From Candidatus Peregrinibacteria bacterium (GTDB lineage Bacteria; Patescibacteriota; Gracilibacteria; Peribacterales; Peribacteraceae): a stretch of DNA of 64,000 nt. Every line of letters starts with the position of its first letter. The first letter of the stretch is position 1. The notes beneath the pieces were generated by a model. It made no database searches. It saw only the letters and a program-made list of their open reading frames with translations, and had not been told where the DNA came from. Both the position numbers and the translations under genes were made by a program. Shown here in pieces: positions 3,708-62,021 of this stretch. The stretch lies in the NCBI GenBank assembly GCA_043798355.1, contig JAZDOT010000002.1:1160-65159 (forward strand), written 5' to 3'.

Positions 3708-5948
3708 ATGGCCGGACTGCGTTATCTCCACATCATCGTGCCGCAGGGGACGGCGGGGGAGAAGAAGCTGGAGGTCAAGTTCCAGGATCTTCTCGTGAGC
3801 CTGCGCAATACCGTGACGGGTGTGCGGTTTTCGTTCGAATACCTCGGCTACGAGCAGTACACGTACTTCTACGCGGTCATGGAGGAGAAATATATGGAGA
3901 CGATCGAGGGTCTCATCTATGCGACTTTCCCCGATGCCGAGATCCGCGAAACGAAGGATTATGCCGCCTCCCTCGATCCGGCAAGGCATGCATTTGCCGG
4001 ATGCGAGCTTTATCCCAAGGAGAGTGACGTGTATCCCATCAAGACGTACGACAAATTCGAGGAGGACAGCATGTCGCGGCTCTTCTCGGTCCTCTCCAAA
4101 ATAGACAGCGGCGAGCAGGTGTGGGTGCAGATCATCTCGGAACCCAGAGCGGACAACGCCGCCTACCACTTTTTCCACAACCTACGCTTCCGGATCGCCG
4201 GATTCCTGAAGTTCTTCTCCCCGCGGGATCACTTGCGCAAGGAGGGGTACCGAGGCATCCAGGCCGTCCGCGCGAAGGCGGCGCACGCGAAGGACGAGAC
4301 GAAGCCGTACGAAGTCTCCATCCGCTGCGCGTATCTTTCGAAGAATTTCGAAGAGGCGAAGCGGAAGCTCACGGCGGTACAGAACAGCTTCTACCACTTC
4401 AACGATTCCGATATCAACGGGTTCACCTCCTCACGCTCAACCAATGCGGATTCTTTCCTGAAGAGGTACCGCGCGCGCGGGCACGCGAAGAAATTTGTTC
4501 TGAGTTCGATGGAACTGGCCACAATCTTCCACTTCCCGAATGCTGACTACGTGCATCACATCGTGCACGTCCTCGCGCGCAAGTCCGATCCTCCGCAGGA
4601 CCTCCCGCGGGCCGGTGAGAAGGAAGTGAGCACGTTCGGCATCACCAATTACCACAATAACTTCGTGAAGTTTGGCATCCGCCTCGAGGATCGCCGACGC
4701 CATCTCTACGTCGTCGGAAAATCGGGCGTGGGGAAATCGAAGCTCCTCGAACTCCTCATCCACGAGGATCTCGACCGCGGGCGCGGGGTGGCCGTACTCG
4801 ATCCGCACGGGGACCTCGTTGATAACGTTCTCCGGTTCGTTCCGAAGCACCGCATCGACGACGTCGTCCTCTTCGACCCGTCCGACACGGAGTTCCCCAT
4901 CGCCTTCAACCCGCTCGAGCAGGTGGAGGATGCCTACAAGATGCAGCTCACCATCGGCTTCCTCGACATCTTCAAGAAGCTCTTCGGCGATAACTGGACG
5001 TACCGTCTCGAGCACGTGTTGCGCTATACCACGCTCGCGCTCCTCGACAGCCCGAATACCACGGTGCTCTCGATCCTGAAGATGCTTAATGACAAGAACT
5101 ACCGCCAGAAGATCGTGGCGCGCATCCAGGACAACGTCGTGAAGAGCTTCTGGGTCTCGGAGTTCGCCGCGTGGAGCGAAAAGTTCGATGCCGAGGCCAT
5201 CACGCCGCTCCTCAACAAGGTCGGTCAGTTCGTGGCGACGAACATGATTCGCAACATCATCGGACAGAGTGACACGAAGTTCAAAATCCGCGACATCATG
5301 GACGGGAAGAAGATCCTGCTCATGAAGGTGTCGAAAGGACTCCTGGGAGAGGAGAACTCGTCGCTTCTCGGCTCCATGATCATCACGAAGATGTACCAGG
5401 CGGCCATGAGCCGCGCGGACGTTCTCGAGGAGCAGCGCTCTGACTTCTACTTCTACGTGGATGAGTTCCAGAACTTCGCGACGGATACCTTCTACGAGAT
5501 TCTCTCCGAGGCGCGCAAGTATCACCTCAATCTGACCATCGCCCATCAGTACATGGGGCAACTCTCAAGCAAGATCCGCCAGACGGTCTTCGGCAACGTG
5601 GGGTCCATGATCAGTTTCCGCGTGGGGGCGGAGGATGCGACGGTGCTCGAGAAGGAGTACGAGCCGATCTTCAAGGAACGCGACATCATCAACCTCGGTG
5701 TGCGTGAGTTCTACATCAAGATGTCGGTGAAAGGGGAGAGCCGCGATCCGTTCTCCGGCCGGACGGTGGATGTCCCGAAAGTCACGGCGGATCACTCCAG
5801 CGAGATCCGTGCGCTCTCGCGGGCGAAGTACTGCCAGGCGAAGCAGAAGGTGGAAGAGACCCTGAAGAAGTGGGACGAGGCTGCCAGTGCTCCGCCGAAG
5901 GAGGGTGAAGTGGATACGGAAGAGCAGTTCGACGAACCGATTATCTAG
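3708..5948 (+). CDS. VirD4/TraD (type IV coupling protein)-like HerA/FtsK-superfamily P-loop ATPase
   Basis: Walker A is YVVGKSGVGKSKLLE and Walker B is FYFYVDEFQNFA, followed by AHQYMGQL, as in TraG/TraD/VirD4-type ATPases. An N-terminal domain of about 330 aa has no obvious TM helices. Confidence 0.7.
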   Translation: MAGLRYLHIIVPQGTAGEKKLEVKFQDLLVSLRNTVTGVRFSFEYLGYEQYTYFYAVMEEKYMETIEGLIYATFPDAEIRETKDYAASLDPARHAFAGCELYPKESDVYPIKTYDKFEEDSMSRLFSVLSKIDSGEQVWVQIISEPRADNAAYHFFHNLRFRIAGFLKFFSPRDHLRKEGYRGIQAVRAKAAHAKDETKPYEVSIRCAYLSKNFEEAKRKLTAVQNSFYHFNDSDINGFTSSRSTNADSFLKRYRARGHAKKFVLSSMELATIFHFPNADYVHHIVHVLARKSDPPQDLPRAGEKEVSTFGITNYHNNFVKFGIRLEDRRRHLYVVGKSGVGKSKLLELLIHEDLDRGRGVAVLDPHGDLVDNVLRFVPKHRIDDVVLFDPSDTEFPIAFNPLEQVEDAYKMQLTIGFLDIFKKLFGDNWTYRLEHVLRYTTLALLDSPNTTVLSILKMLNDKNYRQKIVARIQDNVVKSFWVSEFAAWSEKFDAEAITPLLNKVGQFVATNMIRNIIGQSDTKFKIRDIMDGKKILLMKVSKGLLGEENSSLLGSMIITKMYQAAMSRADVLEEQRSDFYFYVDEFQNFATDTFYEILSEARKYHLNLTIAHQYMGQLSSKIRQTVFGNVGSMISFRVGAEDATVLEKEYEPIFKERDIINLGVREFYIKMSVKGESRDPFSGRTVDVPKVTADHSSEIRALSRAKYCQAKQKVEETLKKWDEAASAPPKEGEVDTEEQFDEPII

Positions 5949-5981
5949 GGATTAGGATTAGGATTAGGGTTAGGGTTAGGG
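5949..5981 (+). repeat. Hexamer tandem array (ATTAGG x3, GTTAGG x2; TTAGGG-like)
   Basis: gggattaggattaggattagggttagggttaggg begins at the TAG stop of the preceding gene. Confidence 0.9.
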
Positions 5982-9987: not shown

Positions 9988-12900
9988 GAAAAAGAGATGA
10001 GTAATATAAATACCATTCTTTGAATTGCCCCTCCCGTTCCCGAGGAGTATCCGATGGTGACCTTTTGGGTGCATGTCCGTAGTACTCTTCTCTTCCCCGA
10101 TAGACTGGTAGTTCCGTTCCCGCTCTCGCAAGAACCCAGGCACTGAGAGCCTTGGCAGCCTTTCCGCAGCCATCCTCGAAGAAGTGGTGGGTGAGATCGA
10201 CATTGAATTCCACCCACGCAGCGAGCTCTCGAGGATTTTGGTGCGGATCATTCAATCGGCGCAAGAATTCCTGCGAGAAATTTTCAAATGATCGCGGAAG
10301 ATCGCTGATACGGGTATACGGGAACTTATCCGAATCAGCCCGCCGGAGCAGCATTCTCTCTTTGAGGATGCCTTTATTGACATCGAGGGCTATTTGTTCA
10401 ATGAAATTTCCCAGTTCACGGGGGGAACTGAATTGGCGGCTGCGCTCTCCATGTAGGCGCCTCATGACCGACTCGAAATTTTCATTCGCCTTCCTTGCGG
10501 CGTCGTGACCGGATGCAGCCATTGAGTCGGCTTTGATCTTCGTTGCCGATGTGTCGACCACCCCCCCGCTCGTACGACTCGTGTTCCGCAGGTTCTGCAT
10601 CGATCGGTCCACGAACTGTTGTTCCTGACGGATATCCCTCGTCACATGTTTGAAGATCTGAGGCTCGTGTACTGTCATACCTTTACCTTGGTGTTCTGCT
10701 ACCATGATAGTGTCCGGACCTGCATCTGTTTTGAACAAGTAATACTCATCCACGATTTTCATCACTTCCTGACGATATTGCACGACATCTTGGTATCCAC
10801 CCTCAATTCTATCGGTGGAGACAATGGGGTCGTCCCCTTCCGGAGAGCGACCCGGGTATTTCTTCCCTTGTGCTTCGCCCCCGTGAACACGTGCGATAGA
10901 AGTGGCCAATTCCGCATCGACATCCACCATGATAACTTTGTAATCGTTCTTTCGTGCCATTTCCGTCACTTCACGGACGTCCTCGGGTGTCGCAAACCGC
11001 TTGTCTATGACAATCAAATTTAATTTCTCTTTGAGTGCCTGATCGATTGTCCGTTCTGCCATCATCGCTCCTTCGCTGTGGGCCTGATCGTGCGAGATCT
11101 GATGGGTGCCTCCTCTTTTTTCGCGGACACGGACTTTGGCTTTGAGACCATCGGGATTGATTGCCGTGTCGGGATTTGCGTTGAGTTCTCGTAATCGGGG
11201 AGCGCTTGCCATGCGCAAGCAACTGCTCTTCCCTGCCGCGGTATTTCCACGCAACATCACGATCACTCTCTGCGCACCCACTGCTTCAGGTTTCATGGCC
11301 ATCGATCCCTTGCGAAGTGCCACCATTGTTTCCGAGAAAATTCGTTCATGGAATACGCTTATCTCCGGAATCCAATGGCTCGGATCGGCGATGTATGCCT
11401 TCATGGCCACTTTTCCCTTTGGAAGTTCTCCCACGGTATAGGCAACGTGTGATGCGATTTCGGGATTTCTTCGCAGACACTCCTGTCGTACTTCAAACCC
11501 GGAATGAGCGGGATTTCTTTCTGTCTGCGCCTTCACGCGACTCAGAACATCGCGGGCATTGGCGGCGTTGATCTCTATGAACTCCGCATGCCCCGCCTCG
11601 TTGATGGCCACGATGCCTTTCTCCGTGCTTCGAAGCACTTTAAATGACTGCTCAGGCATGCCTTGAGGTTGTTCTCGATTGAAGCGTTCGATCTTCTCCA
11701 GCAATTGATGCTCCTGCGCTTCTGCAATTTGCTTGGACATAATTTCCCACTTTTCTTGCGTTTTCGCCTCTGTCCGTTCATGCGGAGCAGTTTCCTTTTC
11801 CATGTTCGGTTTTTGTCCGACCTGTTCTTGCTTGGCAGCTTGCCGTTCTGTGCCACGGAGTTCTCCTTCAGGTTTCGACGGAGTTTCTGCGGGTGCCTTC
11901 GCCGCGCGGCCCTCGGCGGCTGCGTGCAATGATTGCTCGGGAGAGCCGGCACGTTGCGTCGGTACGGCATCCGGATGGTCCGGCGTCTTCACTGGTTCTT
12001 CCGTGAAGCGGACAATGGACTCATTCCCAGCCCTGTCCCGCAATCTCGGCACTCCGGATTCATCCACGATCACTGTGAGTCCCCGCTTCGCTCCGAAGGA
12101 CAAGAGATCACAACCTTTCGGCGCAGAAAGTTCGCCCATCATTTTGCCGCCAGGCTGCGTGTGCACAGCCACGGGATGGAGAAATCCTCCCAGACATGCG
12201 AGCGCGAACGTGGATGCCGCCCCGAGTCGATGATCGATGTTGTTCAAACCGGCACCGACAGCGGATTCTTTGACTGTCCATTCCATTTGGTCTGTGACCC
12301 CTTTGAAAAATTCCTTGAGGAACATCTTCCCCGCGCCGCTCTCCGCCGTAATGTTCGCGAGACGCTGCTCTATGAGTCGTGCGAGACTGGCATACTTGGA
12401 AAAAGCGACGATCCACTTTGGATTGCCAGCGGCAGAACGAAGAGCTTCACCAAGTTTCGCTCCGAGTCCCATCGTCACGAACATCACACCCACCCCCTCG
12501 GCAAATTCCAGCGCGAGCGGACCCGCCACGTCTGTCAGGAACTTCGGCGACACTTCCCTGCCGGTCTCGGGGTCGATGACGGTTCCCCCCGTCACCCAGG
12601 CCATCAATGCTGGACGATCGGTGTAGGTCGCTTTCCCGCTTCGAACATCTTCATCGAAATGCTGATGCCACTGGTACTGGATTTCCCGCACGCCTCCGTA
12701 TGTAGCCATACCCGCTGCCGTTGCGGTACTCGCTGAAGCGAGCATGACCAACATGGGTGCCATGGCTGCGCCGCACGTGGCGACAACGAGAGCTGCTGCT
12801 GCGGCTGCGACGGCAATGGATGCGGCGATCCTGGGCCCCTCGTGCTCGAGCCACGACACCCAGCCATCGTCCGTGAACCGGGATTTGTCGACGATCGTTT

Positions 12901-16795: not shown

Positions 16796-16865
16796 GGGGA
16801 AGGGGGGATGAGGTACGTGCTTAAGCGTAGCCGTGTCTTTCCCGAAGCGGAAGGGGAGGCGGAAA

Positions 16866-16900
16866 GGCTAAGGCTAAGGTTAAGGCTAGGGTTAGGATTA
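16866..16900 (+). repeat. Hexamer tandem array (GGCTAA/GGTTAA/GGCTAG/GGTTAG)
   Basis: ggctaaggctaaggttaaggctagggttaggatta lies between the divergent prfB and the gene at 16977. Confidence 0.9.
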
Positions 16901-35192: not shown

Positions 35193-36695
35193 ATGCGACG
35201 ACTCTGCCTCATCATCCTCGACGGGTTCGGCGTCGCCCCACCCGGCCCCGGGAATGCCCGCACACTTTCGAAGATGCCGACGGTGAAGCATCTCGAACAA
35301 GAAGTTCCGAATGTCATCATGCAGGCCGCGGGCAATGCGGTCGGCCTTCCCGAGGGGCAGCAGGGGGCCAGCGAGCCCGGTCACCTCACCATCGGTGCGG
35401 GGCGGATCGTCTGGCAGCCGCTCGAGGAGATCAACCAATCCATCAGGAGCGGTGCCTTCTTCGAAAATCCCGTCCTCACGGCCGCCTGCGACCGCGCGAA
35501 GGCGAAGAACGGCCCCCTCCATCTGGAGGTGATTTTCTCATACGGCGGCGTCCACGGGCACATCGATCACCTGTTCGCCATGATCCGCATGGCCAAAGAG
35601 CGCTCTGTACCACGTGTCATTCTTCATCTCGTGGGAGACGGCAGGGATGTCCCCGAACAGCAGTTCACGATCGACTACGATCTCTTCCGGAAGAAGATCG
35701 ATCGCGAGACATTCGTGAAGATCGCTTCCCTCGTCGGTCGCTACTACGCCATGGACCGCGACCGGCAATATGCCACCCGGACCAAGGTCGCCTATGACCT
35801 CTTCACGCTCGGGAAAGGCGAAGAGTGCCCCGATCTCTCCATCGGGGCGAAGGAGTGGTACGCGAAAGCCCCCGACAAGGAGAAGACCGACTACTACATT
35901 CATCCGCTCAAGACGAAGGATTTCCAGCCGATCCGTGCGGAGGATACGGTGGTCATCGTGAACTTCCGCTCCGATCGGGAGATCCAGATCGTCCGCGCGC
36001 TCGAGGACGAGCACTTCACCGAATTCCTCCGCCCCGTCCGTGTCACGGACGTGACCTGCATGGGGCCGTACTCCGATCATCTGCCCGTCGCCTTCCCCGC
36101 CGTAGAAGTGAAGAACACCTTGGGCGAAGTGATTTCCAGAGCTGGTCTCAAGCAGCTTCGTGTCGGGGAAACCGACAAGTTCGCGCACATCACCTTCTTC
36201 TTCAACGCCCAGCGCCACGAGCCGTATCCCGGCGAGGAGCGCATCCTCATCGAATCCCCCAAGGTGCCGAACTTCGCCGATGCGCCGGAGATGAGTGCGG
36301 ACGGGGTGACGAAAACGGTCGTCGAACATCTGGGGAAGTACGACCTCATCATCATGAACTACGCCAACCCCGACCTCGTGGGGCACGGAGGCAAACTGGA
36401 TGCGGCGATCATTGCATGTGAGACGGTGGACCGTAATTTGGCTGTGCTCCTCCCGCAGCTGGAGGCAGCAGGTTACGATTGGATCATCACGGCGGACCAC
36501 GGCAATGCCGAGATCATGCTCCTTCCGGACGGCGTCACTGCGAATCCCAGCCACACCGCGAGTCCCGTACAGACGTTCGTGCACTCCTCCCTCATTCAGT
36601 CATCCAAAGATCTCAAAGGCATGAAGGGTCTCAAGGACATTGCCCCGCTGTGCCTGAAGATCATGGGGATCGAAGTTCCTGAGGAGATGCAATAA
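35193..36695 (+). CDS. gpmI: 2,3-bisphosphoglycerate-independent phosphoglycerate mutase
   Basis: MRRLCLIILDGFGV...GASEPGHLTIGAGRIV...HLVGDGRDV...ETDKFAHITFFFN...NYANPDLVGH...ITADHGNAE. Confidence 0.88.
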   Translation: MRRLCLIILDGFGVAPPGPGNARTLSKMPTVKHLEQEVPNVIMQAAGNAVGLPEGQQGASEPGHLTIGAGRIVWQPLEEINQSIRSGAFFENPVLTAACDRAKAKNGPLHLEVIFSYGGVHGHIDHLFAMIRMAKERSVPRVILHLVGDGRDVPEQQFTIDYDLFRKKIDRETFVKIASLVGRYYAMDRDRQYATRTKVAYDLFTLGKGEECPDLSIGAKEWYAKAPDKEKTDYYIHPLKTKDFQPIRAEDTVVIVNFRSDREIQIVRALEDEHFTEFLRPVRVTDVTCMGPYSDHLPVAFPAVEVKNTLGEVISRAGLKQLRVGETDKFAHITFFFNAQRHEPYPGEERILIESPKVPNFADAPEMSADGVTKTVVEHLGKYDLIIMNYANPDLVGHGGKLDAAIIACETVDRNLAVLLPQLEAAGYDWIITADHGNAEIMLLPDGVTANPSHTASPVQTFVHSSLIQSSKDLKGMKGLKDIAPLCLKIMGIEVPEEMQ

Positions 36696-36956
36696 GCAGC
36701 CTCAGCCAGCCGTTTCGCTGGTCGGATCGGCAGGCTTTTCTTGAGCCTGTGCGACTTTCGGTTCCTGCGGTTTGCCGGGAATTGCTGCGATCTTGCTTCG
36801 AGTATCTATCTCTAGTGCAGGCAGGTCGGTGCCGGTTCGTACAACTTTACACAATTGCGCATCCTCCGGACGTTCCCAAGGTTTTAATCCCATAGTTGGG
36901 TGGGGAAAAAAAGTGGCAGTAAGATAATTCCCTCTTTCTGGAATGCAAGCTAATCT

Positions 36957-38345
36957 ATGAGAAATCTCATGGAAGAGATCACCACCCGTTCGGCGCGCTT
37001 CTACGATGACCTTGCCGGCCACCCGGATCGTCATGTGCATCTCATTCTGATCGCGACGAAGCCGGACATCATCAAGCAGGTGCCTCTCTACCTGGAATTG
37101 AAGCGGCGCGGGCACCTGGTCCTCCTGGGGCATACCGGCCAGCACTACGACGAGAACCTGAGCGGCGGGATGCTGAAGGAGTTCGGCGTCGAACCGGATT
37201 TCAACCTGAATGTCCGCGGCAGTCTGTATGAGGTCGTTGCTCAGATCATCGGGAGGCTGGGATATGTGATCGGAGAACTCAAGTCGCGCGGGAAAATTGT
37301 GATTCCGTACGTGCACGGCGACACGACGACGGCGATGGCGGCATCGAATGCAGGATTTTGTCATGGGTTTGCGGCGGTGCATGTGGAGGCAGGGATACGG
37401 ACATTGACACCGCGGTATAGGGATTGGGGATTGGGGATTGGGGATTGGGACGGGCAGAAAGGACTAAGGACTAAGGACAAAGGACAAAGGATACAGATTA
37501 ATAATGTATCAGTGTGGAGGAAGTTTCTGATGGATCGAAAGAACTGGGAGCGGGGGAGCCTGGAGCCGTATCCGGAGCAGTTCAATACGCGCTGCTCTGA
37601 GGCGGCAACAGGAATTCATCTTGCTCCCGTTGAGCTCGATCGTGAGTTTATGCTCAGTGAAGGATTCCCCGCAGACAGGATCTTTGTCACGGGAAACTCC
37701 GTTGCGGACGCAACGCGTGAGGCGCAGGCTCGTGCGAAACATTCAGCGATCTTCGAGAGGTTCCCCTTACTCGCGAAGGGGGATTTCGTGCGTTTCTGCA
37801 TCCATCGCAGGGAGAACTGCGCATCGGACAAGCGGTTTATGGCCATCTATGAAGCGATGAAATCCCTGATTCTTTCCGGGCGAACGGTGCTCCTTATCTC
37901 CATGTTCCAGACGGAAGCTGCATTTGTGCGGTTGGGATTGAAAAACGAAGTGGATGCTCTCGTAAAATCACACAAAAATTTCATCTACTCTCCGGTGTGG
38001 AGCGAGTACGGCGACGTCATCGCCGCCATGGAGCGCGCAGCCGTCTGCGCCACGGACAGCGGATCCATGCAGGAGGAGATGAACGTGCTCGGTATACCGT
38101 GTGTGACGCTCCGGTTCGGTTCCGATCGCAGTGAATCCGTAATGAACGGCGGGAACATTATCGCGCCGCCGGTGGATGCGTCCGTCATTCAAACTATCAT
38201 CGAGTATGCGTGGAATCATGCGGAGATGAAGAAGGCGCCGAAGCTCTACGGCGAGAATGTCAGCGCGCGATCGATCGACGCAGTTGAGAGTGTGCTCAAA
38301 ACAGGAGACGTATTTCGGGACGAAGAGAAGAGACTCGGGTTTTGA
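36957..38345 (+). CDS. UDP-N-acetylglucosamine 2-epimerase-like protein (WecB family) with a repeat-derived insert
   Basis: KPDIIKQVPLY..., HTGQHYDENLS, YVHGDTTTAMA, VHVEAGIRT ... PEQFNTR ... IFVTGNSVADA ... DSGSMQEEMNVLGIPCVTLR. An extra segment of about 50 aa lies between IRT and PEQFNTR. Confidence 0.8.
   Translation: MRNLMEEITTRSARFYDDLAGHPDRHVHLILIATKPDIIKQVPLYLELKRRGHLVLLGHTGQHYDENLSGGMLKEFGVEPDFNLNVRGSLYEVVAQIIGRLGYVIGELKSRGKIVIPYVHGDTTTAMAASNAGFCHGFAAVHVEAGIRTLTPRYRDWGLGIGDWDGQKGLRTKDKGQRIQINNVSVWRKFLMDRKNWERGSLEPYPEQFNTRCSEAATGIHLAPVELDREFMLSEGFPADRIFVTGNSVADATREAQARAKHSAIFERFPLLAKGDFVRFCIHRRENCASDKRFMAIYEAMKSLILSGRTVLLISMFQTEAAFVRLGLKNEVDALVKSHKNFIYSPVWSEYGDVIAAMERAAVCATDSGSMQEEMNVLGIPCVTLRFGSDRSESVMNGGNIIAPPVDASVIQTIIEYAWNHAEMKKAPKLYGENVSARSIDAVESVLKTGDVFRDEEKRLGF
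37420..37490 (+). repeat. Two heptamer arrays (GGGATTG x4; GGACTAA/GGACAAA x4) inside the epimerase ORF
   Basis: gggattggggattggggattggggattggga cgggcagaaa ggactaaggactaaggacaaaggacaaagg is followed by the palindrome gatacagattaataatgtatc (37490-37510). Confidence 0.9.
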
Positions 38346-38348
38346 CGG

Positions 38349-38369
38349 AGCTTTGAGCTTTGAGCGATC
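38349..38369. repeat. Heptamer array (AGCTTTG x2.5)
   Basis: agctttgagctttgagcgatc starts 4 nt after the epimerase stop. Confidence 0.8.
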
Positions 38370-38541
38370 AGTCTTCAGGGAGATATTGAAGAGCCCTCGC
38401 ACACGCTCTTCGGTCGGCCTATTTACTACTCTTCAACCGATGGGGCGCGAGGGCTCTTAATTTGGCTCATCCAACTGGACAAGTTGGATGAATTTTATGC
38501 TTGTGTGTTTCAGGCACAAGGGAAAAGGCAGGATTTTTGCT

Positions 38542-40026
38542 ATGCTCCTTTCCATGCTCCAGGTCACCCGCGAACGCCTCACGCTCATTCTTCTCACTCT
38601 CCTCCCGTTCCACGCGTTCCTGGTGACGGTTCTGACGAAGGTTGTCGTAGGTCCGGGACATGCGCCGCTGACGGTCCTTGCTCTCTGGAAGGAGATTCTC
38701 CTTGGCATAGTGTTTCTGGTGTCATGTTTGGAGCTCAGTTGTGAGTTTGGGCGGAAGGACTTAGGACTTAGGACGAAGGACTTAGGACGAAGAGTTGATG
38801 CTATCGACTGGTGCATCATTGCTTTGTTGCTCCTTGCCGTTCTCGTCAGTGCTTACAGCTTACAGCTTACAGCTTACAGCTTCGCTCTCGGCTTCAAATA
38901 CGACTTTCTCCCCCTCGTCGCATTCCTCGTCCTGCGTCGCATTCCGTGGTCGGAGAAATTCATCGGGAATGTTCTTCGTGTCATTCCGATCATCGCCATC
39001 ATCATTGTCGCGTATGGATTGGCCTCGCTGTTCCTTCCCGCATCCTTCTTCACGCGGCTCGGATACAGTGATCTCCATTCCCTCTATGTTCCGAGCGGGC
39101 CGCTGGCTGCCTTCCAGTACATCTCTGAGCTCGGGATTCGCCGCATGCAGAGTGTCATGAGCGGGCCGAATCAACTGGGGATGTGGATGCTCACTCCCTT
39201 GAGTTTCGCCGTTGTCACATGGGTACGGGAGAGAGCGATGAGCGGACAGCGCACAGCGATCAGTACGATCGTTATTCTCGGTGTGGCGCTTTTTCTGACA
39301 TTCTCGCGGGCGGCGTGGGTCGCAGCTACGGCGATCCTGATTACATTCGCCGCGTTTCATTGGCGTGAGCCGCTCGTGCGGCGCATTTCCATGATCGCAG
39401 TCGCTCTGGGCATTCTTGTTTTCTCTGCATTGATGATCGTTGCACCGGGGATATGGCTTCGGTCCGTGTCCAATAGCGGGCATCTGCAGAGGCCGATGGT
39501 CGCTCTGCAAACGATGCTCGCTCACCCCTTCGGCCTCGGCCTCGGCGCTGCCGGTCCGGCATCGAATGCCGTGAGTGATGTGTGCGTGGAACTTCCCGCG
39601 GGGTCGGATGCTTCGTGGGCGAACGACCGGCCGGAGCTCTGCGTCTTCGTCGGGGATATGCAAGTTCAACCCATCGGCAAGATTTGCCGTTGCCCCATGC
39701 TCACGGAGAACTGGTACCTCCAAGTCGGCGTAGAACTTGGGTTTCTCGGTTTTGGGTTATTTGTCGTTCTCATACTGTTGGTTCTGCGCCGACTTGGAAT
39801 GAAAAATGGAAAATGGAACATGGAAGATTTCAGATCGGATGATCGGATTCATTCCGAAGAATTTTCAATTTTCAATTTTCAATTTTCAATTTTCCTCGTT
39901 TTCCTCGGCATCAGCATTGCGGCGCTCTTTTTGCATGCGTGGGAAGACAGTGCCGTCGCGTATACGGCGTGGATCGTTGTGGCCATAAGTTTGCATTCAC
40001 CGAAAGCGTCTTTGCATGGGCATTAA
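38542..40026 (+). CDS. O-antigen ligase (Wzy_C)-like polytopic membrane protein
   Basis: About 10 or more TM helices, with the FLTFSRAAWVA motif typical of O-antigen ligase-like proteins. It carries four tandem arrays. The start is uncertain (38488, 38542 or 38554). Confidence 0.65.
   Translation: MLLSMLQVTRERLTLILLTLLPFHAFLVTVLTKVVVGPGHAPLTVLALWKEILLGIVFLVSCLELSCEFGRKDLGLRTKDLGRRVDAIDWCIIALLLLAVLVSAYSLQLTAYSFALGFKYDFLPLVAFLVLRRIPWSEKFIGNVLRVIPIIAIIIVAYGLASLFLPASFFTRLGYSDLHSLYVPSGPLAAFQYISELGIRRMQSVMSGPNQLGMWMLTPLSFAVVTWVRERAMSGQRTAISTIVILGVALFLTFSRAAWVAATAILITFAAFHWREPLVRRISMIAVALGILVFSALMIVAPGIWLRSVSNSGHLQRPMVALQTMLAHPFGLGLGAAGPASNAVSDVCVELPAGSDASWANDRPELCVFVGDMQVQPIGKICRCPMLTENWYLQVGVELGFLGFGLFVVLILLVLRRLGMKNGKWNMEDFRSDDRIHSEEFSIFNFQFSIFLVFLGISIAALFLHAWEDSAVAYTAWIVVAISLHSPKASLHGH
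38756..38792 (+). repeat. Heptamer array (AGGACTT/AGGACGA x5) inside the ligase-like ORF
   Basis: aggacttaggacttaggacgaaggacttaggacgaag is translated as KDLGLRTKDLGRR. Confidence 0.9.
38851..38885 (+). repeat. Heptamer array (GCTTACA x4) inside the ligase-like ORF
   Basis: gcttacagcttacagcttacagcttacagcttcgc is translated as AYSLQLTAYSFA. Confidence 0.9.
39803..39830 (+). repeat. Heptamer array (AAAATGG x2, AACATGG, AAGATTT) inside the ligase-like ORF
   Basis: aaaatggaaaatggaacatggaagattt is translated as KNGKWNMEDF. Confidence 0.8.
39863..39890 (+). repeat. Heptamer array (TTTTCAA x4) inside the ligase-like ORF
   Basis: ttttcaattttcaattttcaattttcaa is translated as FSIFNFQFSIF. Confidence 0.9.
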
Positions 40027-40031
40027 GTCGC

Positions 40032-40436
40032 TCAAGTTTCCATATCCTGTTCGGCTATGAATGCCCAAAAGGCATCATCCGCCAGTACCGTACCCAGTTT
40101 CCCGAAGAGACGTATATGCTGTGTGATAGCCTGTACGACAGTATCTTTATGCTGTTCTGCGACATGCACGCCGGGACCAACGCGAGCCGTCACTGCATCA
40201 TGCCGTTCGATTCGGTCTCCCGCGTTCTTGCATGCTGTCTCAACCTGTGTTGCTGCATCGTGTGGTAATGCTGCCAGCATCTGTTTTTGACGTCTGAAAA
40301 AATCGTTCACGGTATCGACAATCGTCTTTGCTGCCCCCCTTTCTGTCGTGTCGGCTAAGCGCAATAACTCTGTGGTAGCCGTTTCGGCTTCTTCACAGAG
40401 CGTACGGAGGGATTGCCGATTGTTATCAATTGTCAT
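40032..40436 (-). CDS. Hypothetical helical protein
   Basis: 134-aa ORF filling the gap between convergent and divergent neighbours. No family recognised. Confidence 0.45.
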   Translation of the reverse strand: MTIDNNRQSLRTLCEEAETATTELLRLADTTERGAAKTIVDTVNDFFRRQKQMLAALPHDAATQVETACKNAGDRIERHDAVTARVGPGVHVAEQHKDTVVQAITQHIRLFGKLGTVLADDAFWAFIAEQDMET

Positions 40437-40513
40437 AGAGCAGGTATGCTGCCTACATTTATTAGTTTGTCAACTGTCTCGTAGTTCTTTCTTGCAATCG
40501 TTATGCTGTCTCC

Positions 40514-42304
40514 ATGTCGGATTCCCATCCCATCGTCGTCTTGGATTGCGGCGGACAGTACGCGCACCTGATCGCGCGGAGGGTCCGGAGCCTCGGCGCA
40601 TGTTCGGTCATTCGCATCGCGGAAACGAGCGCGGCAGACTTGCGTGATGCCGCCGGGATCATCCTCTCGGGCGGACCGCAGAGCGTGTACGAAGAGGGGA
40701 GCCCGCAGGCGGATCCGGGGATTTTCACGTTAGGGGTCCCCGTGCTCGGGATCTGTTACGGCCTGCACTGGATGGCGCACGCGCTCGGGGGGACGGTCAC
40801 GCCCGGCAATGTGAAGGAGTACGGTCACACGGATATCCGTACCGTTACGGGCGGAGGGATGCTTCTCAGAGATTGTGGGCAGGAATTCGTTGCCTGGATG
40901 TCGCATGGGGACGAGGCGCAGAAACTCCCGCCGGGCTTCACCCTGACCGCAACCTCCGATGCCTGCCGGAATGTCGCTTTCGAGGATGCCGCACGGAAGC
41001 TCTTCGCCGTGCAGTTCCACCCGGAAGTGACGCACACAGAGCACGGTACGGACATACTCCGCCGCTTCGTCGCTCTCTGTGGCGCCACGCCCTGGACGAT
41101 GCACGGCTATGCGGAGCGCATCGCCGGAGAGATTCGCCGACAGACGGGGGACAGGAAAGTCTTCATGCTCGTCTCGGGCGGCGTGGATTCCACTGTCGCC
41201 TTCACCCTGCTCAATCAGGTTCTGGGGACCGGCCGCGTGCAGGGGCTCCTGGTGGATACCGGGCTCATGCGCAAGAACGAGATCGCGGAAATCCGTGCCG
41301 CCTTCGATCGATTGCATGTTTCTAACCTGAAGATTGAAGATGCCTCGGATGAGTTCTTCCGGAATTTAAAAGGTGTCTACGATCCCGAAGCGAAGCGACG
41401 CATCATCGGGGATACGTTCCTCGCGGTGCAGGCGCGGGTGAGCGAAGGGCTGGGTTTGACGGCGGGCAAAGGGTGGATGCTCGGTCAGGGGACGATCTAC
41501 CCCGATACCATCGAGACCAAGGGGACGAAGCATGCCGACCACATCAAGACGCACCACAACCGTGTGGCTGCCGTGCAGGAGTTGATTGCCAAGGGGCTCG
41601 TGATCGAACCGCTGCGAGAACTCTACAAAGACGAGGTGCGCATGCTCGGCGAGGAATTGGGATTGCCGCACGAGCTCGTCTGGCGTCACCCGTTCCCGGG
41701 GCCGGGACTGGGAGTGAGGATCCTGTGTGCAGAGAATGCCGATCTTGCGGAGGCTCAAAGCTCAAAGCTCAACGCTCAAAGCTTCACCGTTCTTCCCGTG
41801 AAGTCCGTGGGCGTTCAGGGAGACGGACGCACCTACCGGCATGCGGTGGCCGTGTTCAAAGATGATCCCTGTGTCGTCACTGACGAACTGTGGGAGATCG
41901 CAAAAAGTGTTCCCAATACATACCGGGAATTCAACCGGGTTCTCCTCTGTACGTCTTCTTCGGTGCCCCCATCGTTCACCTTCATGCCGGGATTCCTCAC
42001 GCGGGAGCGGGCCGATCTCCTGCGCGAAGCGGATGCCATCGTGGCGGAAGAGATCGGGAGAAGTCACCTCACGGAAGCCATTTGGCAATTTCCGGTGGTA
42101 CTCCTCCCCTTCGGTACATGCATAGGAGGGCAATCCATCGTGCTGCGTCCGGTCGCATCGCAGGAGGCCATGACGGCGAGCGCGTTCCCTCTGCCGGAGG
42201 ACGTCGTGCAACGCATGACGGAGCGTATTCTTCGGCTCCCGGGAATTGATTGTGTGTTCTACGATCTGACCAGTAAGCCGCCGGGGACGATTGAGTGGGA
42301 GTGA
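40514..42304 (+). CDS. guaA: GMP synthase (glutamine-hydrolysing)
   Basis: GATase N-terminus IVVLDCGGQYAHLIARRVR...CYG...FAVQFHPEV. PP-loop VSGGVDSTV. ...HHNRV...HPFPGPGLGVRI...SVGVQGDGRTY...KPPGTIEWE. Confidence 0.9.
   Translation: MSDSHPIVVLDCGGQYAHLIARRVRSLGACSVIRIAETSAADLRDAAGIILSGGPQSVYEEGSPQADPGIFTLGVPVLGICYGLHWMAHALGGTVTPGNVKEYGHTDIRTVTGGGMLLRDCGQEFVAWMSHGDEAQKLPPGFTLTATSDACRNVAFEDAARKLFAVQFHPEVTHTEHGTDILRRFVALCGATPWTMHGYAERIAGEIRRQTGDRKVFMLVSGGVDSTVAFTLLNQVLGTGRVQGLLVDTGLMRKNEIAEIRAAFDRLHVSNLKIEDASDEFFRNLKGVYDPEAKRRIIGDTFLAVQARVSEGLGLTAGKGWMLGQGTIYPDTIETKGTKHADHIKTHHNRVAAVQELIAKGLVIEPLRELYKDEVRMLGEELGLPHELVWRHPFPGPGLGVRILCAENADLAEAQSSKLNAQSFTVLPVKSVGVQGDGRTYRHAVAVFKDDPCVVTDELWEIAKSVPNTYREFNRVLLCTSSSVPPSFTFMPGFLTRERADLLREADAIVAEEIGRSHLTEAIWQFPVVLLPFGTCIGGQSIVLRPVASQEAMTASAFPLPEDVVQRMTERILRLPGIDCVFYDLTSKPPGTIEWE
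41753..41787 (+). repeat. Heptamer array (GCTCAAA x3, GCTCAAC, GCTTCAC) inside guaA
   Basis: gctcaaagctcaaagctcaacgctcaaagcttcac is translated as AQSSKLNAQSFT. Confidence 0.9.
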
Positions 42305-42342
42305 AGGACGAGGACGAAGGACAGAGGACGAAGGACGAAGGG
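42303..42342. repeat. About 7-nt array (GAAGGAC-type x6) starting at the guaA stop codon
   Basis: gaaggacgaggacgaaggacagaggacgaaggacgaaggg. Confidence 0.85.
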
Positions 42343-45044: not shown

Positions 45045-45602
45045 ATGTACGAAATTACCGATCTCAAACCCGGCAGAGCCATCCAGATCGACGGGATCCC
45101 TTACCTCATTATCTCCTCGCAGTTCGGCCGCAAGAGCCAGAGCAAGGCGAACATGCAGTGCAAGATCAAGAACCTCAAGACCGGAGCGGTCATTCCGAAG
45201 AACTTCCAGGGGAGCGAGCAGATCGAGCAGGCGGACATCGGGTACCGGCACGTGCAGTTCCTCTACTCTGACGGAGAGTCTTTCACCTTCATGGATCTCA
45301 GCAGTTACGATCAGTTTGCGTTGCCGAAAGACGTTGTCGGCGAAGCGGCGAATTACCTCTTCGAGGGGTTGGAACTGGATGCGCTCCTGTTCGAGGAGAA
45401 CCCGATCGGCATCACGCTTCCCTCCACGGTGGACATCAAGGTCATCGAGACGTCTCCGGGCGTCCGCGGAGATACGGCGACGGGCGGGACGAAGCCGGCA
45501 AAGCTCATAAGCGGCTTCTCCGTGGCCGTTCCGCTCTTCATTAGCGAGGGGGACACGGTCAAAGTGAATACGGAGACGGGGGAGTATATGCGCAAGGCGT
45601 AG
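45045..45602 (+). CDS. efp: Elongation factor P
   Basis: MYEITDLKPGRAIQIDGIPYLII...KNLKTGAV...VIETSPGVRGDTATGGTKPAKL..G..V.VPLFI.EGD.VKV.T.TGEY. Confidence 0.92.
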   Translation: MYEITDLKPGRAIQIDGIPYLIISSQFGRKSQSKANMQCKIKNLKTGAVIPKNFQGSEQIEQADIGYRHVQFLYSDGESFTFMDLSSYDQFALPKDVVGEAANYLFEGLELDALLFEENPIGITLPSTVDIKVIETSPGVRGDTATGGTKPAKLISGFSVAVPLFISEGDTVKVNTETGEYMRKA

Positions 45603-45636
45603 GGATTAGGGTTAGGATTAGGGTTAGAGTTAGGGC
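45603..45636 (+). repeat. Hexamer array (GATTAG/GGTTAG x5.5, TTAGGG-like) starting at the efp stop
   Basis: ggattagggttaggattagggttagagttagggc. Confidence 0.9.
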
Positions 45637-49532: not shown

Positions 49533-49661
49533 AAGATCCAAGACGCAAGATACAAGATGCAAACCTTCGTTAGGCACTTCGATATTCCTCTGAAGCAAAC
49601 TTGGATCTTGTATCTTGTTTCTTGCATCTTCCTTGAGTCCTGTATCTTGTACCTTGTGTCC
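49533..49661. repeat. Hairpin element built from heptamer arrays (AAGATNC x4; inverse CTTGNAT x8)
   Basis: aagatccaagacgcaagatacaagatgcaa (49533-49562), then a 37-nt loop, then cttggatcttgtatcttgtttcttgcatctt (49600-49630), continuing as ccttgagtcctgtatcttgtaccttgtgtcc. Confidence 0.85.
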
Positions 49662-53305: not shown

Positions 53306-53339
53306 GGGATAAGGCTAAGGCTAAGGTTAGGGTTAGGGC
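53306..53339 (+). repeat. Hexamer array (GATAAG/GCTAAG/GTTAGG, TTAGGG-like) directly after the thyA stop
   Basis: gggataaggctaaggctaaggttagggttagggc. Confidence 0.9.
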
Positions 53340-53343
53340 AGGG

Positions 53344-53378
53344 AGAGCTTTGAGCTTTGAGCTTTAAGCTTTAAGCTA
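53344..53378. repeat. Heptamer array (GAGCTTT x3, AAGCTTT, AAGCTAT) ending 5 nt before the folA ATG
   Basis: gagctttgagctttgagctttaagctttaagctat. Confidence 0.9.
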
Positions 53379-59554: not shown

Positions 59555-60490
59555 TTACTGCTGCGCAAGAACGTTTGAGCCCAGCCAGACGTAGGGCAGC
59601 TTCGTCACGTCCCATGGTATATCGCCGCGCCACCGGAAAGAACCGGAGGCAATCGTGCGGGCGGGGATGTGGTCTTCCATCCACCGCAGTTTCATGGCCA
59701 GCGCGCGGTTGCTCTGTGCGCGTTGCACGAAGCTCTCGCGCTGGAGCAGGAAGAACGCGTACGTTTCGGCGAAGTCCTCGAAGGCATCGGAGGCGGAGTA
59801 GCCCGAGACGAAATCTTCCGCGCGCGCTTCGGGATGCTTCTCCTTCGCGCTCTTCCAGGAGATGGCATAGAAGCTCACGCTCGGATCGTCATTCCAGATG
59901 ATCTCGTTCCCGTCACGAAAAGCACTCGCGCCCATTGCGGATGTGCCTGTGAGGCAGCCGAGATCCGTCACATGTCCGAACTCGTGGACGAGGAGTGAGC
60001 GGAATTCATTCTCCTCTACAGAGCCGTCGATGACGATGGAGCTCTTTCCGGCGAGTCCCCGCTGGTTCGGTCTGTCATAGCGCACGACGAATCGTTTGAG
60101 GAAGGGGAGGCATTCGCCCGGGAGAGCGCGCAGGACTTCGCTCGCGAGCAGTTTATCTTCGAAGGTGATGTCGGGTTGGTTCACGATGGGGACGAAGGGC
60201 TGGACCCGCTCCTCTTCCGTGTCATTGGTAATGAGGTGGATCTGAGGGTTAAGGCTAGGGTTAAGGCTAAGGCTAGGGTTAAGGTTAGGGGCGGTTTTGG
60301 CGATCCAGTAGTAACTTCCGGGGTGTTCGGTCTGCGTGCGAGGTCTCGGGCTGACGGAGCGGATGGCCGCTTTATTTGCAGGGGCGATCTCCTGTGCTAT
60401 GCTCCCGCTCGAGAGTACGGTCGAGCTTCCGCCGGTCAGGCAGCAGAGAAGTCCTGTGAGGAAGAGGACATGTGCTCTCATTGGATGCAA
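59555..60490 (-). CDS. Secreted putative zinc metalloprotease (HExxH)
   Basis: It has a signal-peptide-like N-terminus (AHVLFLTGLLCCLTGG) and LLVHEFGHVTD. A hexamer array is translated as NLNPSLSLNPSLNPQ near the N-terminus. Confidence 0.6.
   Translation of the reverse strand: MHPMRAHVLFLTGLLCCLTGGSSTVLSSGSIAQEIAPANKAAIRSVSPRPRTQTEHPGSYYWIAKTAPNLNPSLSLNPSLNPQIHLITNDTEEERVQPFVPIVNQPDITFEDKLLASEVLRALPGECLPFLKRFVVRYDRPNQRGLAGKSSIVIDGSVEENEFRSLLVHEFGHVTDLGCLTGTSAMGASAFRDGNEIIWNDDPSVSFYAISWKSAKEKHPEARAEDFVSGYSASDAFEDFAETYAFFLLQRESFVQRAQSNRALAMKLRWMEDHIPARTIASGSFRWRGDIPWDVTKLPYVWLGSNVLAQQ
60245..60289 (+). repeat. Hexamer array (GGTTAA/GGCTAG/GGCTAA x7, TTAGGG-like) inside the metalloprotease ORF
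   Basis: gggttaaggctagggttaaggctaaggctagggttaaggttagggg. The G-rich strand is on the + strand and the gene is on the - strand. Confidence 0.9.
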
Positions 60491-61982: not shown

Positions 61983-62001
61983 AGGATCGGTTTAGTACGA
62001 A

Positions 62002-62021
62002 GGGTTAGGGTTAGGGTTAGG
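62002..62021 (+). repeat. Hexamer array (GGGTTA x3)
   Basis: gggttagggttagggttagg starts 20 nt after the rlmD stop. Confidence 0.85.

Follow-up and report, generated by a model that had tools for sequence, protein, structure and literature searches.

In the 64,000-nucleotide stretch of Candidatus Peregrinibacteria DNA analyzed here (contig JAZDOT010000002.1, positions 1,160 to 65,159; called the window below, always at its full length), an intact gene for a 462-aa WecB-like epimerase of the Epimerase_2 family (36957..38345, + strand) carries a long loop between two of its catalytic motifs, and the tip of this loop is encoded by two in-frame heptanucleotide simple sequence repeats (SSRs) of the kind that pervades Peribacteria genomes. 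The explanation that we consider probable is that slippage generated the heptanucleotide repeat, that it is tolerated in a disordered loop tip, and that it is read through into peptide. The comparisons reported below draw on 81 orthologous genes, that is, the window gene and those of 80 further Peribacteria loci (1.40 Mb in total), and on an alignment of 27 of the best homologs (A1).

The first of the two repeats, array 1 (37420..37449, + strand), consists of 4.3 copies of GGGATTG, equivalent to (GGGGATT)4, with 100% matches in Tandem Repeats Finder (TRF); its 30 nt make up 10 codons and code for DWGLGIGDW. Array 2 (37458..37491, + strand; 34 nt, TRF 92% matches) contains 4.9 copies of an AAAGGAC-type unit, arranged as (GGACTAA)2(GGACAAA)2, and codes for KGLRTKDKGQR. 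An 8-nt spacer, ACGGGCAG, can be read from the sequence between the two (37450..37457, + strand), and the three pieces together span 72 nt, or 24 codons (RDWGLGIGDWDGQKGLRTKDKGQR), from which the tryptic peptide YRDWGLGIGDWDGQK is expected upon translation. Both arrays are built of head-to-tail 7-nt units and lie above the ~3-copy minimum for a heptanucleotide long SSR. A first-pass annotation of this DNA had correctly picked out the two repeats (as GGGATTG x4 and GGACTAA/GGACAAA x4) and had recognized that the segment is stop-free and in frame, and indeed the ORF (open reading frame) is intact, with its stops patched. It went astray in describing two 28-nt arrays, neither of which would preserve the frame. 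The first run is 30 nt long, and the closest relative, L009 (74.3% identity across the gene), lacks 45 nt (15 codons), within ~37461-37513, that carry array 2 and GATACAGATTAATAAT; each piece is therefore in frame by itself. Array 1 is identical in L009, where the stretch TATAGGGATTG(x4)GGGAC forms a 37-nt run that is the longest identical stretch of the whole gene.

The enzyme and its native loop

The identification of the gene as a WecB-type epimerase is borne out by a match to Pfam PF02350 (159.9 bits, 9.7e-47, cut-off 30.6) that is split in two by the loop. Its score against the NCBIfam wecB equivalog TIGR00236 does not reach the cut-off (169.2, cut-off 210.15), and we therefore treat the protein as a member of a divergent subfamily. 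The closest homologs (69-76% identity, 431-504 aa) all come from Peregrinibacteria/Peribacteria, members of the candidate phyla radiation (CPR). The ORF is full length and keeps every invariant family residue, including D122, E144, E207 and H283 of the catalytic motifs; across the Peribacteria orthologs and distant representatives, the residues E144, E207, H283 and R284 never vary, and conservation of D122 is 90% or more. We take these positions to be equivalent to the acid/base and UDP-binding residues D95, E117, E131 and H213 of the E. coli enzyme. An AlphaFold2 (AF2) model built with the ortholog alignment as input has a mean predicted local distance difference test score (pLDDT) of 85.3 and a predicted template-modeling score (pTM) of 0.84, and shows a two-Rossmann-domain fold that can be superposed on solved 2-epimerases, which Foldseek matches with E-values down to 1e-23 and target-normalised template-modeling (TM) scores of 0.85-0.89. 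Judged by its sequence, the protein is a member of a divergent, long-loop Epimerase_2 subfamily, here found in Peribacteria.

The loop itself, L150-E203 (54 aa; 37404..37565, + strand), lies between HVEAGIRT and PYPEQFNTR. Solved WecBs align to residues ~30-150 and ~203-440 and have only ~3 residues of their own in between, and the classical ~370-aa WecBs have no such segment at this position. In this sense, the insert of about 50 residues inferred in the first-pass annotation is real: there are ~50 extra residues relative to the classical enzymes. It is not an insert peculiar to this gene, however, as the loop is present in 81 of 81 Peribacteria orthologs, where it measures 32-72 aa and varies in length by whole codons only, and as representatives of 50%-identity clusters (430-490 aa, 27-51% identity) carry a non-repetitive segment of 25-40 aa at the same position; no more than 24 of its codons are repeat-coded. 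The bulk of the supposed insert is a native subfamily loop that is repeat-built at the tip only. A homologous, non-repetitive segment in other lineages, the finding that was to mark a native subfamily feature, is thus present for everything outside the tip and not for the tip itself, and the proposal of a tolerated surface-loop insertion holds for the 24 repeat-coded codons and fails for the native remainder.

The ortholog consensus reads HVEAGIRTLTPxY[variable]DVxxWRxFLMDRKNWERGSLEPYPEQFNTR. Its conserved native part, W187-E203 (WRKFLMDRKNWERGSLE; 37515..37565, + strand), has W187, W197, G200, S201 and E203 invariant in A1, and the AT-rich tail that had been assigned to the insert is conserved native coding sequence that includes the first four of these residues and codes for VSVWRKFLMDRKNWERGSLE, which is conserved in every ortholog. 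The native part is modeled by AF2 as a helix (184-191) and a strand (197-199) with pLDDT 85-90, and the minimal-loop ortholog P0027 is modeled with the same elements and with its whole native loop at pLDDT 80-94. This divergent Epimerase_2 subfamily is defined by an ancient extension, structured and at least 25-32 residues long, between the HVEAG (E144) and PEQ (E207) motifs. The repeat-coded residues 162-178 have pLDDT <50 in the model, and the sole other internal segment below this value is the catalytic loop 206-211; the repeat-coded tip is probably a disordered excursion from the structured, subfamily-specific element.

The hairpin at 37490..37510 (+ strand; GATACA/TGTATC arms, 6-bp stem, 9-nt loop, -5.3 kcal/mol) lies in the hypervariable part of the loop and had been described as a 21-nt palindrome. 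Stems of its size are common (193 in the window vs ~139 expected), and a search of the window with up to 3 mismatches found no copies beyond the site itself; we rejected it as a meaningful feature and judge it to be due to chance. Arrays 1 and 2 were also considered as an inverted pair and rejected as such (unit distance 4). A 74-aa ORF on the minus strand (…SPIPNPQSLYRG…; 37361-37585) overlaps the arrays; it seems to exist because the repeats lack stops, and not to be a gene. At another position on the WecB surface, after the ELKE helix, the ortholog P0033 (locus L011) has a further 30-residue low-complexity insertion, PTSAKAFPFAKASPSASASGDRSGDKSVGK (A1 columns 157-186).

Translation and turnover of the arrays

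Because seven is not a multiple of three, a heptamer array is read in all three frames and here gives a 7-residue-periodic, glycine- and charge-rich peptide; and because all three frames are sampled, a unit that contains a stop meets it in frame at every third copy. Units with stops (GGACTAA, AGGACTT, GGGCGTA) are altered precisely at the copy that falls in frame. In array 2, a hypothetical uniform (GGACTAA)4 would read KGLRTKD*, and a T-to-A difference in the third unit (37479, + strand) turns the in-frame GAC TAA into GAC AAA. The AGGACTT array of the next gene (38756-38792) has every third copy patched alike, to AGGACGA, and the GGGCGTA arrays of L001, L003, L011 and L013 have TGG where a TAG would fall in frame. 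Since the in-frame stop copies are altered in this way, and since the reading frame continues through the loop in 81 of 81 orthologous genes, the array is, to all appearances, translated. That stop-containing units needed patching suggests, in addition, that the DNA repeat came first and that the protein accommodated it afterwards. The patched stops and the in-frame orthologs together argue strongly that the segment is not removed from the RNA or the protein, and that the gene has not become a pseudogene.

The loop is a hotspot for such arrays. Loop DNA (9.8 kb) holds 30 of 259 arrays, which corresponds to 3.06/kb vs 0.165/kb elsewhere, an 18.6-fold enrichment. A perfect array is present in 28 of the 81 loops, with period 7 in all but two, where the period is 8. 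The remaining 53 loops have a lag-7 autocorrelation of 0.380, vs 0.222 in control segments from the same genes, and lag 7 scores highest in 20 of these 53 loops vs 14 of 243 controls; they look like decayed "ghost" arrays. Across orthologs, the arrays fill the same codons of the slot in one register: TGG GGA TTG GGG ATT GGG GAT TGG in the window and L009; TGG GGC GTA GGG CGT AGG GCG TGG in L001, L003, L011 and L013; and arrays of TGGAAAG in L053, TGGAAAA in L063 and TGGACAG in L060. Those of the window, L009, L001, L053, L063 and L060 run from codon 8 to codon 15 after HVEAGIRT, and a second slot family is made up of TTCAAAA, TTCAAGA, TTCACAA, TTCGAAA and TTCGGAC.

The slot units differ from one another by 1-3 bases, and they change in every copy, often with no change in loop length. 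Such every-copy replacement is what would be expected as the signature of concerted tandem-array turnover, and not of independent point mutation or a one-off insertion. Copy number in the slot ranges from 2.7 to 11.3 among orthologs, up to a 136-nt array in L036, whose gene (10001-11422; P0071) contains ~19 copies of GGAAAGT and codes for GKWKVES six times over; large expansions are thus tolerated in the slot. The loop slot is, on this comparison of orthologs, a long-lived permissive site with concerted turnover of its units rather than the scar of a one-off invasion.

Two loci that lie far apart in a neighbor-joining (NJ) tree, L015 and L080, share an octamer array, TCGAATAC x3-4 (YSNTRILEYSN), at this site, which could reflect convergence, transfer, or a weakness of the tree. 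The tree was built from the proteins without their loops; it is too coarse to date array births and was not relied on.

Heptamer arrays across the lineage

Arrays of this kind are not restricted to the WecB-like gene. The window contains exact runs of 18 nt or longer at period 7 (16, where Markov-1 simulations predict 0.01) and at period 6 (7, vs 0.03 expected), and none at periods 4, 5 and 8-12. In the 1.40 Mb as a whole, there are 225 exact tandem runs of period 7, 38 of period 6, 19 of period 8 and 3 of period 9, with 0-1 runs at every remaining period from 3 to 12. The 225 period-7 arrays represent 126 distinct heptamer units, and run length drops steeply past ~32-34 nt. Array density is 0.28/kb in intergenic DNA and at gene edges and 0.125/kb deep inside long ORFs. 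Arrays of one locus (same genome) have identical units five times as often as arrays of separate loci (6.5% vs 1.2%). Many neighboring arrays form reverse-complement pairs: this holds for 19 of the 42 array pairs within 150 nt (at most 1 mismatch per unit) vs 2.9% of random pairs. Such pairs are found in the window at 39798-39894 and 49533-49630 and at loci L024, L027, L038, L043, L050, L053, L063, L078 and others, and when folded they give long hairpins (-29.6 and -38.9 kcal/mol).

The genes downstream of the WecB-like gene illustrate the range of settings. An array of 2.6 copies of GAGCTTT (38348..38365, + strand), one of the genome-wide set, starts 3 nt past the WecB stop codon; the same unit returns at 53345-53377, and its complement at 41753-41783. 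Directly after WecB, and syntenic in ~72 of 80 loci, comes a gene for a Wzy_C/O-antigen-ligase-like membrane protein (38488-40026, + strand; Pfam 1.5e-9) with four in-frame arrays (AGGACTT, 38756-38792; GCTTACA, 38851-38882; AATGGAA, 39798-39825; AATTTTC, 39860-39894), and its orthologs bear, at the same three or four loop sites, repeat-type peptides that are built from different units. The paired arms in this gene appear to co-vary between genomes (GGAAAGT/TTTCCAC, AATGGAA/TCCATTT), with one arm coding for a hydrophilic loop and the other for a hydrophobic stretch. In L011, slot 1 of the Wzy_C gene codes for RTKDKGQR, the same peptide as in array 2 of the window's WecB. Next, the GMP synthase gene guaA (40466-42301; 612 aa, GMP_synt_C match in two stretches) has an in-frame GCTCAAA x4.4 array at 41753-41783; arrays therefore sit in core metabolic genes too. 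A GAAGGAC x5.7 array (42303-42341) begins exactly at the guaA stop codon, so that AAGGAC-type units occur three times within 5 kb (37458-37491, 38756-38792 and 42303-42341).

The hexamer arrays of the window (5946-5981, 16864-16894, 45600-45635, 53310-53326, 60247-60287 and 62001-62021) all belong to one telomere-like family, YTARGG (TTAGGG, CTAAGG, TTAAGG). Four of them start no more than a few bases from the stop codon of a gene on the + strand, and two share the ending TTAGGGCGAAG. In contrast to the heptamers, these arrays have the look of one dispersed motif.

Origin of the arrays and relation to known repeats

The mechanism that we propose has two steps. Strand slippage in a 7-nt register, during replication or repair, would give rise to the arrays, lengthen and shorten them and make their copies uniform, following the classical long-SSR model of Mrazek et al. 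2007. Selection would then retain those versions that have a total length divisible by three and no stop in an in-frame copy, a filter that is evident from the patched third units. The resulting peptide would be a disordered excursion, as predicted by the modeling, on a well-folded and probably active enzyme. Several observations weigh against this account. Two scans of metagenome contigs for near-identical strains with other copy numbers, one with flank-anchored patterns and one with an array-plus-flank pattern, gave 0 matches. Four-copy arrays are expected to slip rarely, yet perfect arrays are many, and the coding DNA on either side is less well conserved than the array that the window has in common with L009; array perfection and the conservation in L009 hint at active homogenisation, or at selection at the DNA or RNA level, beyond simple slippage. 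Plain slippage also leaves the 19 of 42 reverse-complement pairs and the recurrence of units within a locus not fully explained, and the latter suggests some copying between sites. It should be noted, finally, that the surface exposure of the tip is deduced from pLDDT and secondary structure (DSSP) only.

It is possible, if doubtful, that an active process at work throughout the Peribacteria generates arrays and makes them uniform in 7-nt steps, and that it maintains them at fixed slots, both within conserved genes and in the DNA between them, across class-level divergence; its driver would be more specific than generic polymerase slippage. The targets of such a process would be both single arrays, such as those of the WecB loop, and co-varying reverse-complement pairs, such as those of the neighboring Wzy_C gene, and candidate drivers would be template switching at quasi-palindromes, ectopic array conversion, or an array-binding factor. 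If so, proteins would be continually re-tiled with new 7-residue-periodic peptides, and the coding arrays would be either a by-product of the process or a source of surface-loop diversity.

The conservation of array 1 could alternatively reflect nucleic-acid structure: a (GGGGATT)4 G-quadruplex (G4), in DNA or RNA, might modulate transcription, the speed of translation, or folding during translation at the domain boundary. Array 1 has a canonical sense-strand motif (GGGATTGGGGATTGGGGATTGGGG, 37420-37443), it folds in silico to -12.6 kcal/mol when quadruplexes are allowed vs -0.4 kcal/mol when they are not, it is identical in L009 despite 74% gene identity, and oligonucleotides derived from Nostoc with the same unit form G4 in vitro, with a four-unit preference (PMC4692102). 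Array 2, however, has no G4 potential, and most orthologs carry A/T-rich or other non-G4 heptamers (TTCAAAA, TGGAAAG, TACAAGC and others) in the slot at similar copy number, so that G4 formation is not a conserved property. We find this explanation unlikely for the WecB arrays, and we rejected G4 formation as a general cause of the four-copy preference, as most slot arrays are not G-rich.

Improbable, too, is the proposition that the peptide is what counts, in the form of a small beta-hairpin of the pattern arom-x-aliph-x-x-S/G-x-arom selected for oligomerisation, regulation or partner binding. It draws on the fact that different heptamers yield one pattern (WKVESGKW, WKMENGKW, WGLGIGDW, FKIQNSKF, FGLRTSDF) and that the core is often 19 residues long. 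But several orthologs have minimal 12-residue cores with no repeat, the KGLRTKDKGQR of array 2 is off pattern, AF2 confidence at the tip is low, and the stop-containing units that required patches argue that the DNA repeat came first.

A phase-variable contingency switch, in which gain or loss of one heptamer would shift the frame and turn WecB, and with it a surface glycan, reversibly off, would make sense of a unit length that is not a multiple of three, of arrays that are kept perfect, and of their presence in both WecB and the conserved neighboring Wzy_C gene with its four in-frame arrays, both being surface-polysaccharide genes; in Haemophilus influenzae, SSRs with heptanucleotide units are candidates for phase-variation tracts (PMC2651432). 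Those tracts have 13-38 copies, however, vs the 4-5 seen here (PMC2651432), no frameshifted allele is found among the 81 orthologs, all of which are in frame, equally short arrays occur in the housekeeping gene guaA (41753-41783) and in intergenic DNA, and the stop-patched, mixed-unit array 2 is a poor slippage substrate with no long uniform tract. We hold a switch of this kind to be quite improbable.

Finally, a small mobile element, similar to MITEs (miniature transposable elements with inverted repeats) or small dispersed repeats (SDRs), or an intron or intein that is spliced out, is very improbable indeed: the 45-nt indel relative to L009 with a small hairpin on its 3' side, the related AAGGAC-type units within 5 kb (38756, 42303), and the fivefold greater sharing of unit types within than between loci are outweighed by a non-repeat part that is unique in the window even with 3 mismatches, by terminal inverted repeats and target-site duplications that are not visible, by 126 different units, which argue against copies of one element, by a length of 72 nt, far below that of inteins or group I/II introns, and by stop-avoiding edits that imply translation. 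A scan of 36000-40500 against Rfam at E<=1 gave no match, and the idea of an intron or ribozyme was dropped on this basis. Two suggestions of the first-pass annotation find no support on the same grounds. A recently invaded and possibly inactivated gene is at odds with the full-length ORF, the retained invariant residues, the edited stops and the lack of terminal inverted repeats or element copies, and removal at the RNA or protein level is at odds with the empty Rfam scan, the small size of the segment, its length variation by whole codons, and its stop-avoiding substitutions.

For annotation, these findings show an odd low-complexity stretch in a CPR enzyme to be neither an error nor the mark of a pseudogene, and they set the native loop apart from its repeat-coded tip. 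The WecB loop, with its 81 natural variants, offers a compact system in which to study array birth, homogenisation and selection, and why the step is seven. The wider pattern, in which slots are conserved while their units turn over, stops are patched and inverted pairs co-vary, is of greater interest than the single insert. On the evidence of the window and the 80 further loci, Peribacteria are also a third large home of heptanucleotide repeats, which were earlier described mainly in cyanobacteria, Xanthomonas, Burkholderia and Beggiatoaceae; a literature search for repeats in Peribacteria or Peregrinibacteria found no report of the heptamer class.

How does the enzyme, and how do its repeats, compare with known systems? 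With classical WecB (TIGR00236; PDB 1F6D, 4NEQ, 3BEO) the protein has in common the two-domain fold (TM 0.85-0.89) and the motifs HGDT, HVEAG, PE..NR/TR and HRxEN, with PEQFNTR in place of the classical PEE.NR, and it has a 54-residue loop where the classical enzymes have ~3-8 residues. As for the repeats, heptanucleotides are, according to the summary of Mrazek 2007 given in PMC4679880, the commonest class of long SSR in many bacteria, with polymerase slippage as the proposed origin. Arrays of GGGGATT in Nostoc PCC 7120 show a four-unit preference, and ~32% of them lie inside genes (Rehm et al. 2015, PMC4692102); Xanthomonas has GGGAATC arrays, sometimes in inverted pairs, and GGGGA(T/C)T-type repeats have G4 potential (PMC4692102). 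The short tandemly repeated repetitive (STRR) sequences of cyanobacteria and the Nostoc and Xanthomonas repeats resemble the arrays described here in their 7-nt head-to-tail units, typically ~4 copies, genome-wide dispersal, and intergenic enrichment with some intragenic members; the Nostoc unit, with its G4 motif, is identical to that of array 1, and the Xanthomonas arrays occur in inverted pairs, as they do in the window and its relatives. They differ in host and in unit diversity, with 126 units among 225 arrays and no dominant unit in Peribacteria, where the arrays often lie deep in conserved genes and the slots keep their position and register while the unit changes.

The TAACTGA direct repeats of Beggiatoaceae, cyanobacteria and Bacteroidetes, by comparison, consist of a single unit and are concentrated just upstream of start codons (MacGregor 2015, PMC4679880); occasionally they occur in ORFs, where they give 7-residue-periodic peptides that survive mainly at the protein periphery (PMC4679880). 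They are likewise short (2-6 copies), abundant genome-wide and occasionally translated, whereas the Peribacteria units are diverse and the WecB array lies mid-gene, between two catalytic motifs. The contingency genes of H. influenzae (PMC2651432) likewise have a unit that is not a multiple of three inside a surface-polysaccharide gene, in contrast to which the WecB arrays have 4-5 copies, mixed and patched units, and a reading frame that is kept in 81 of 81 orthologs. The WecB repeats are thus members of a known heptanucleotide class in a new lineage.

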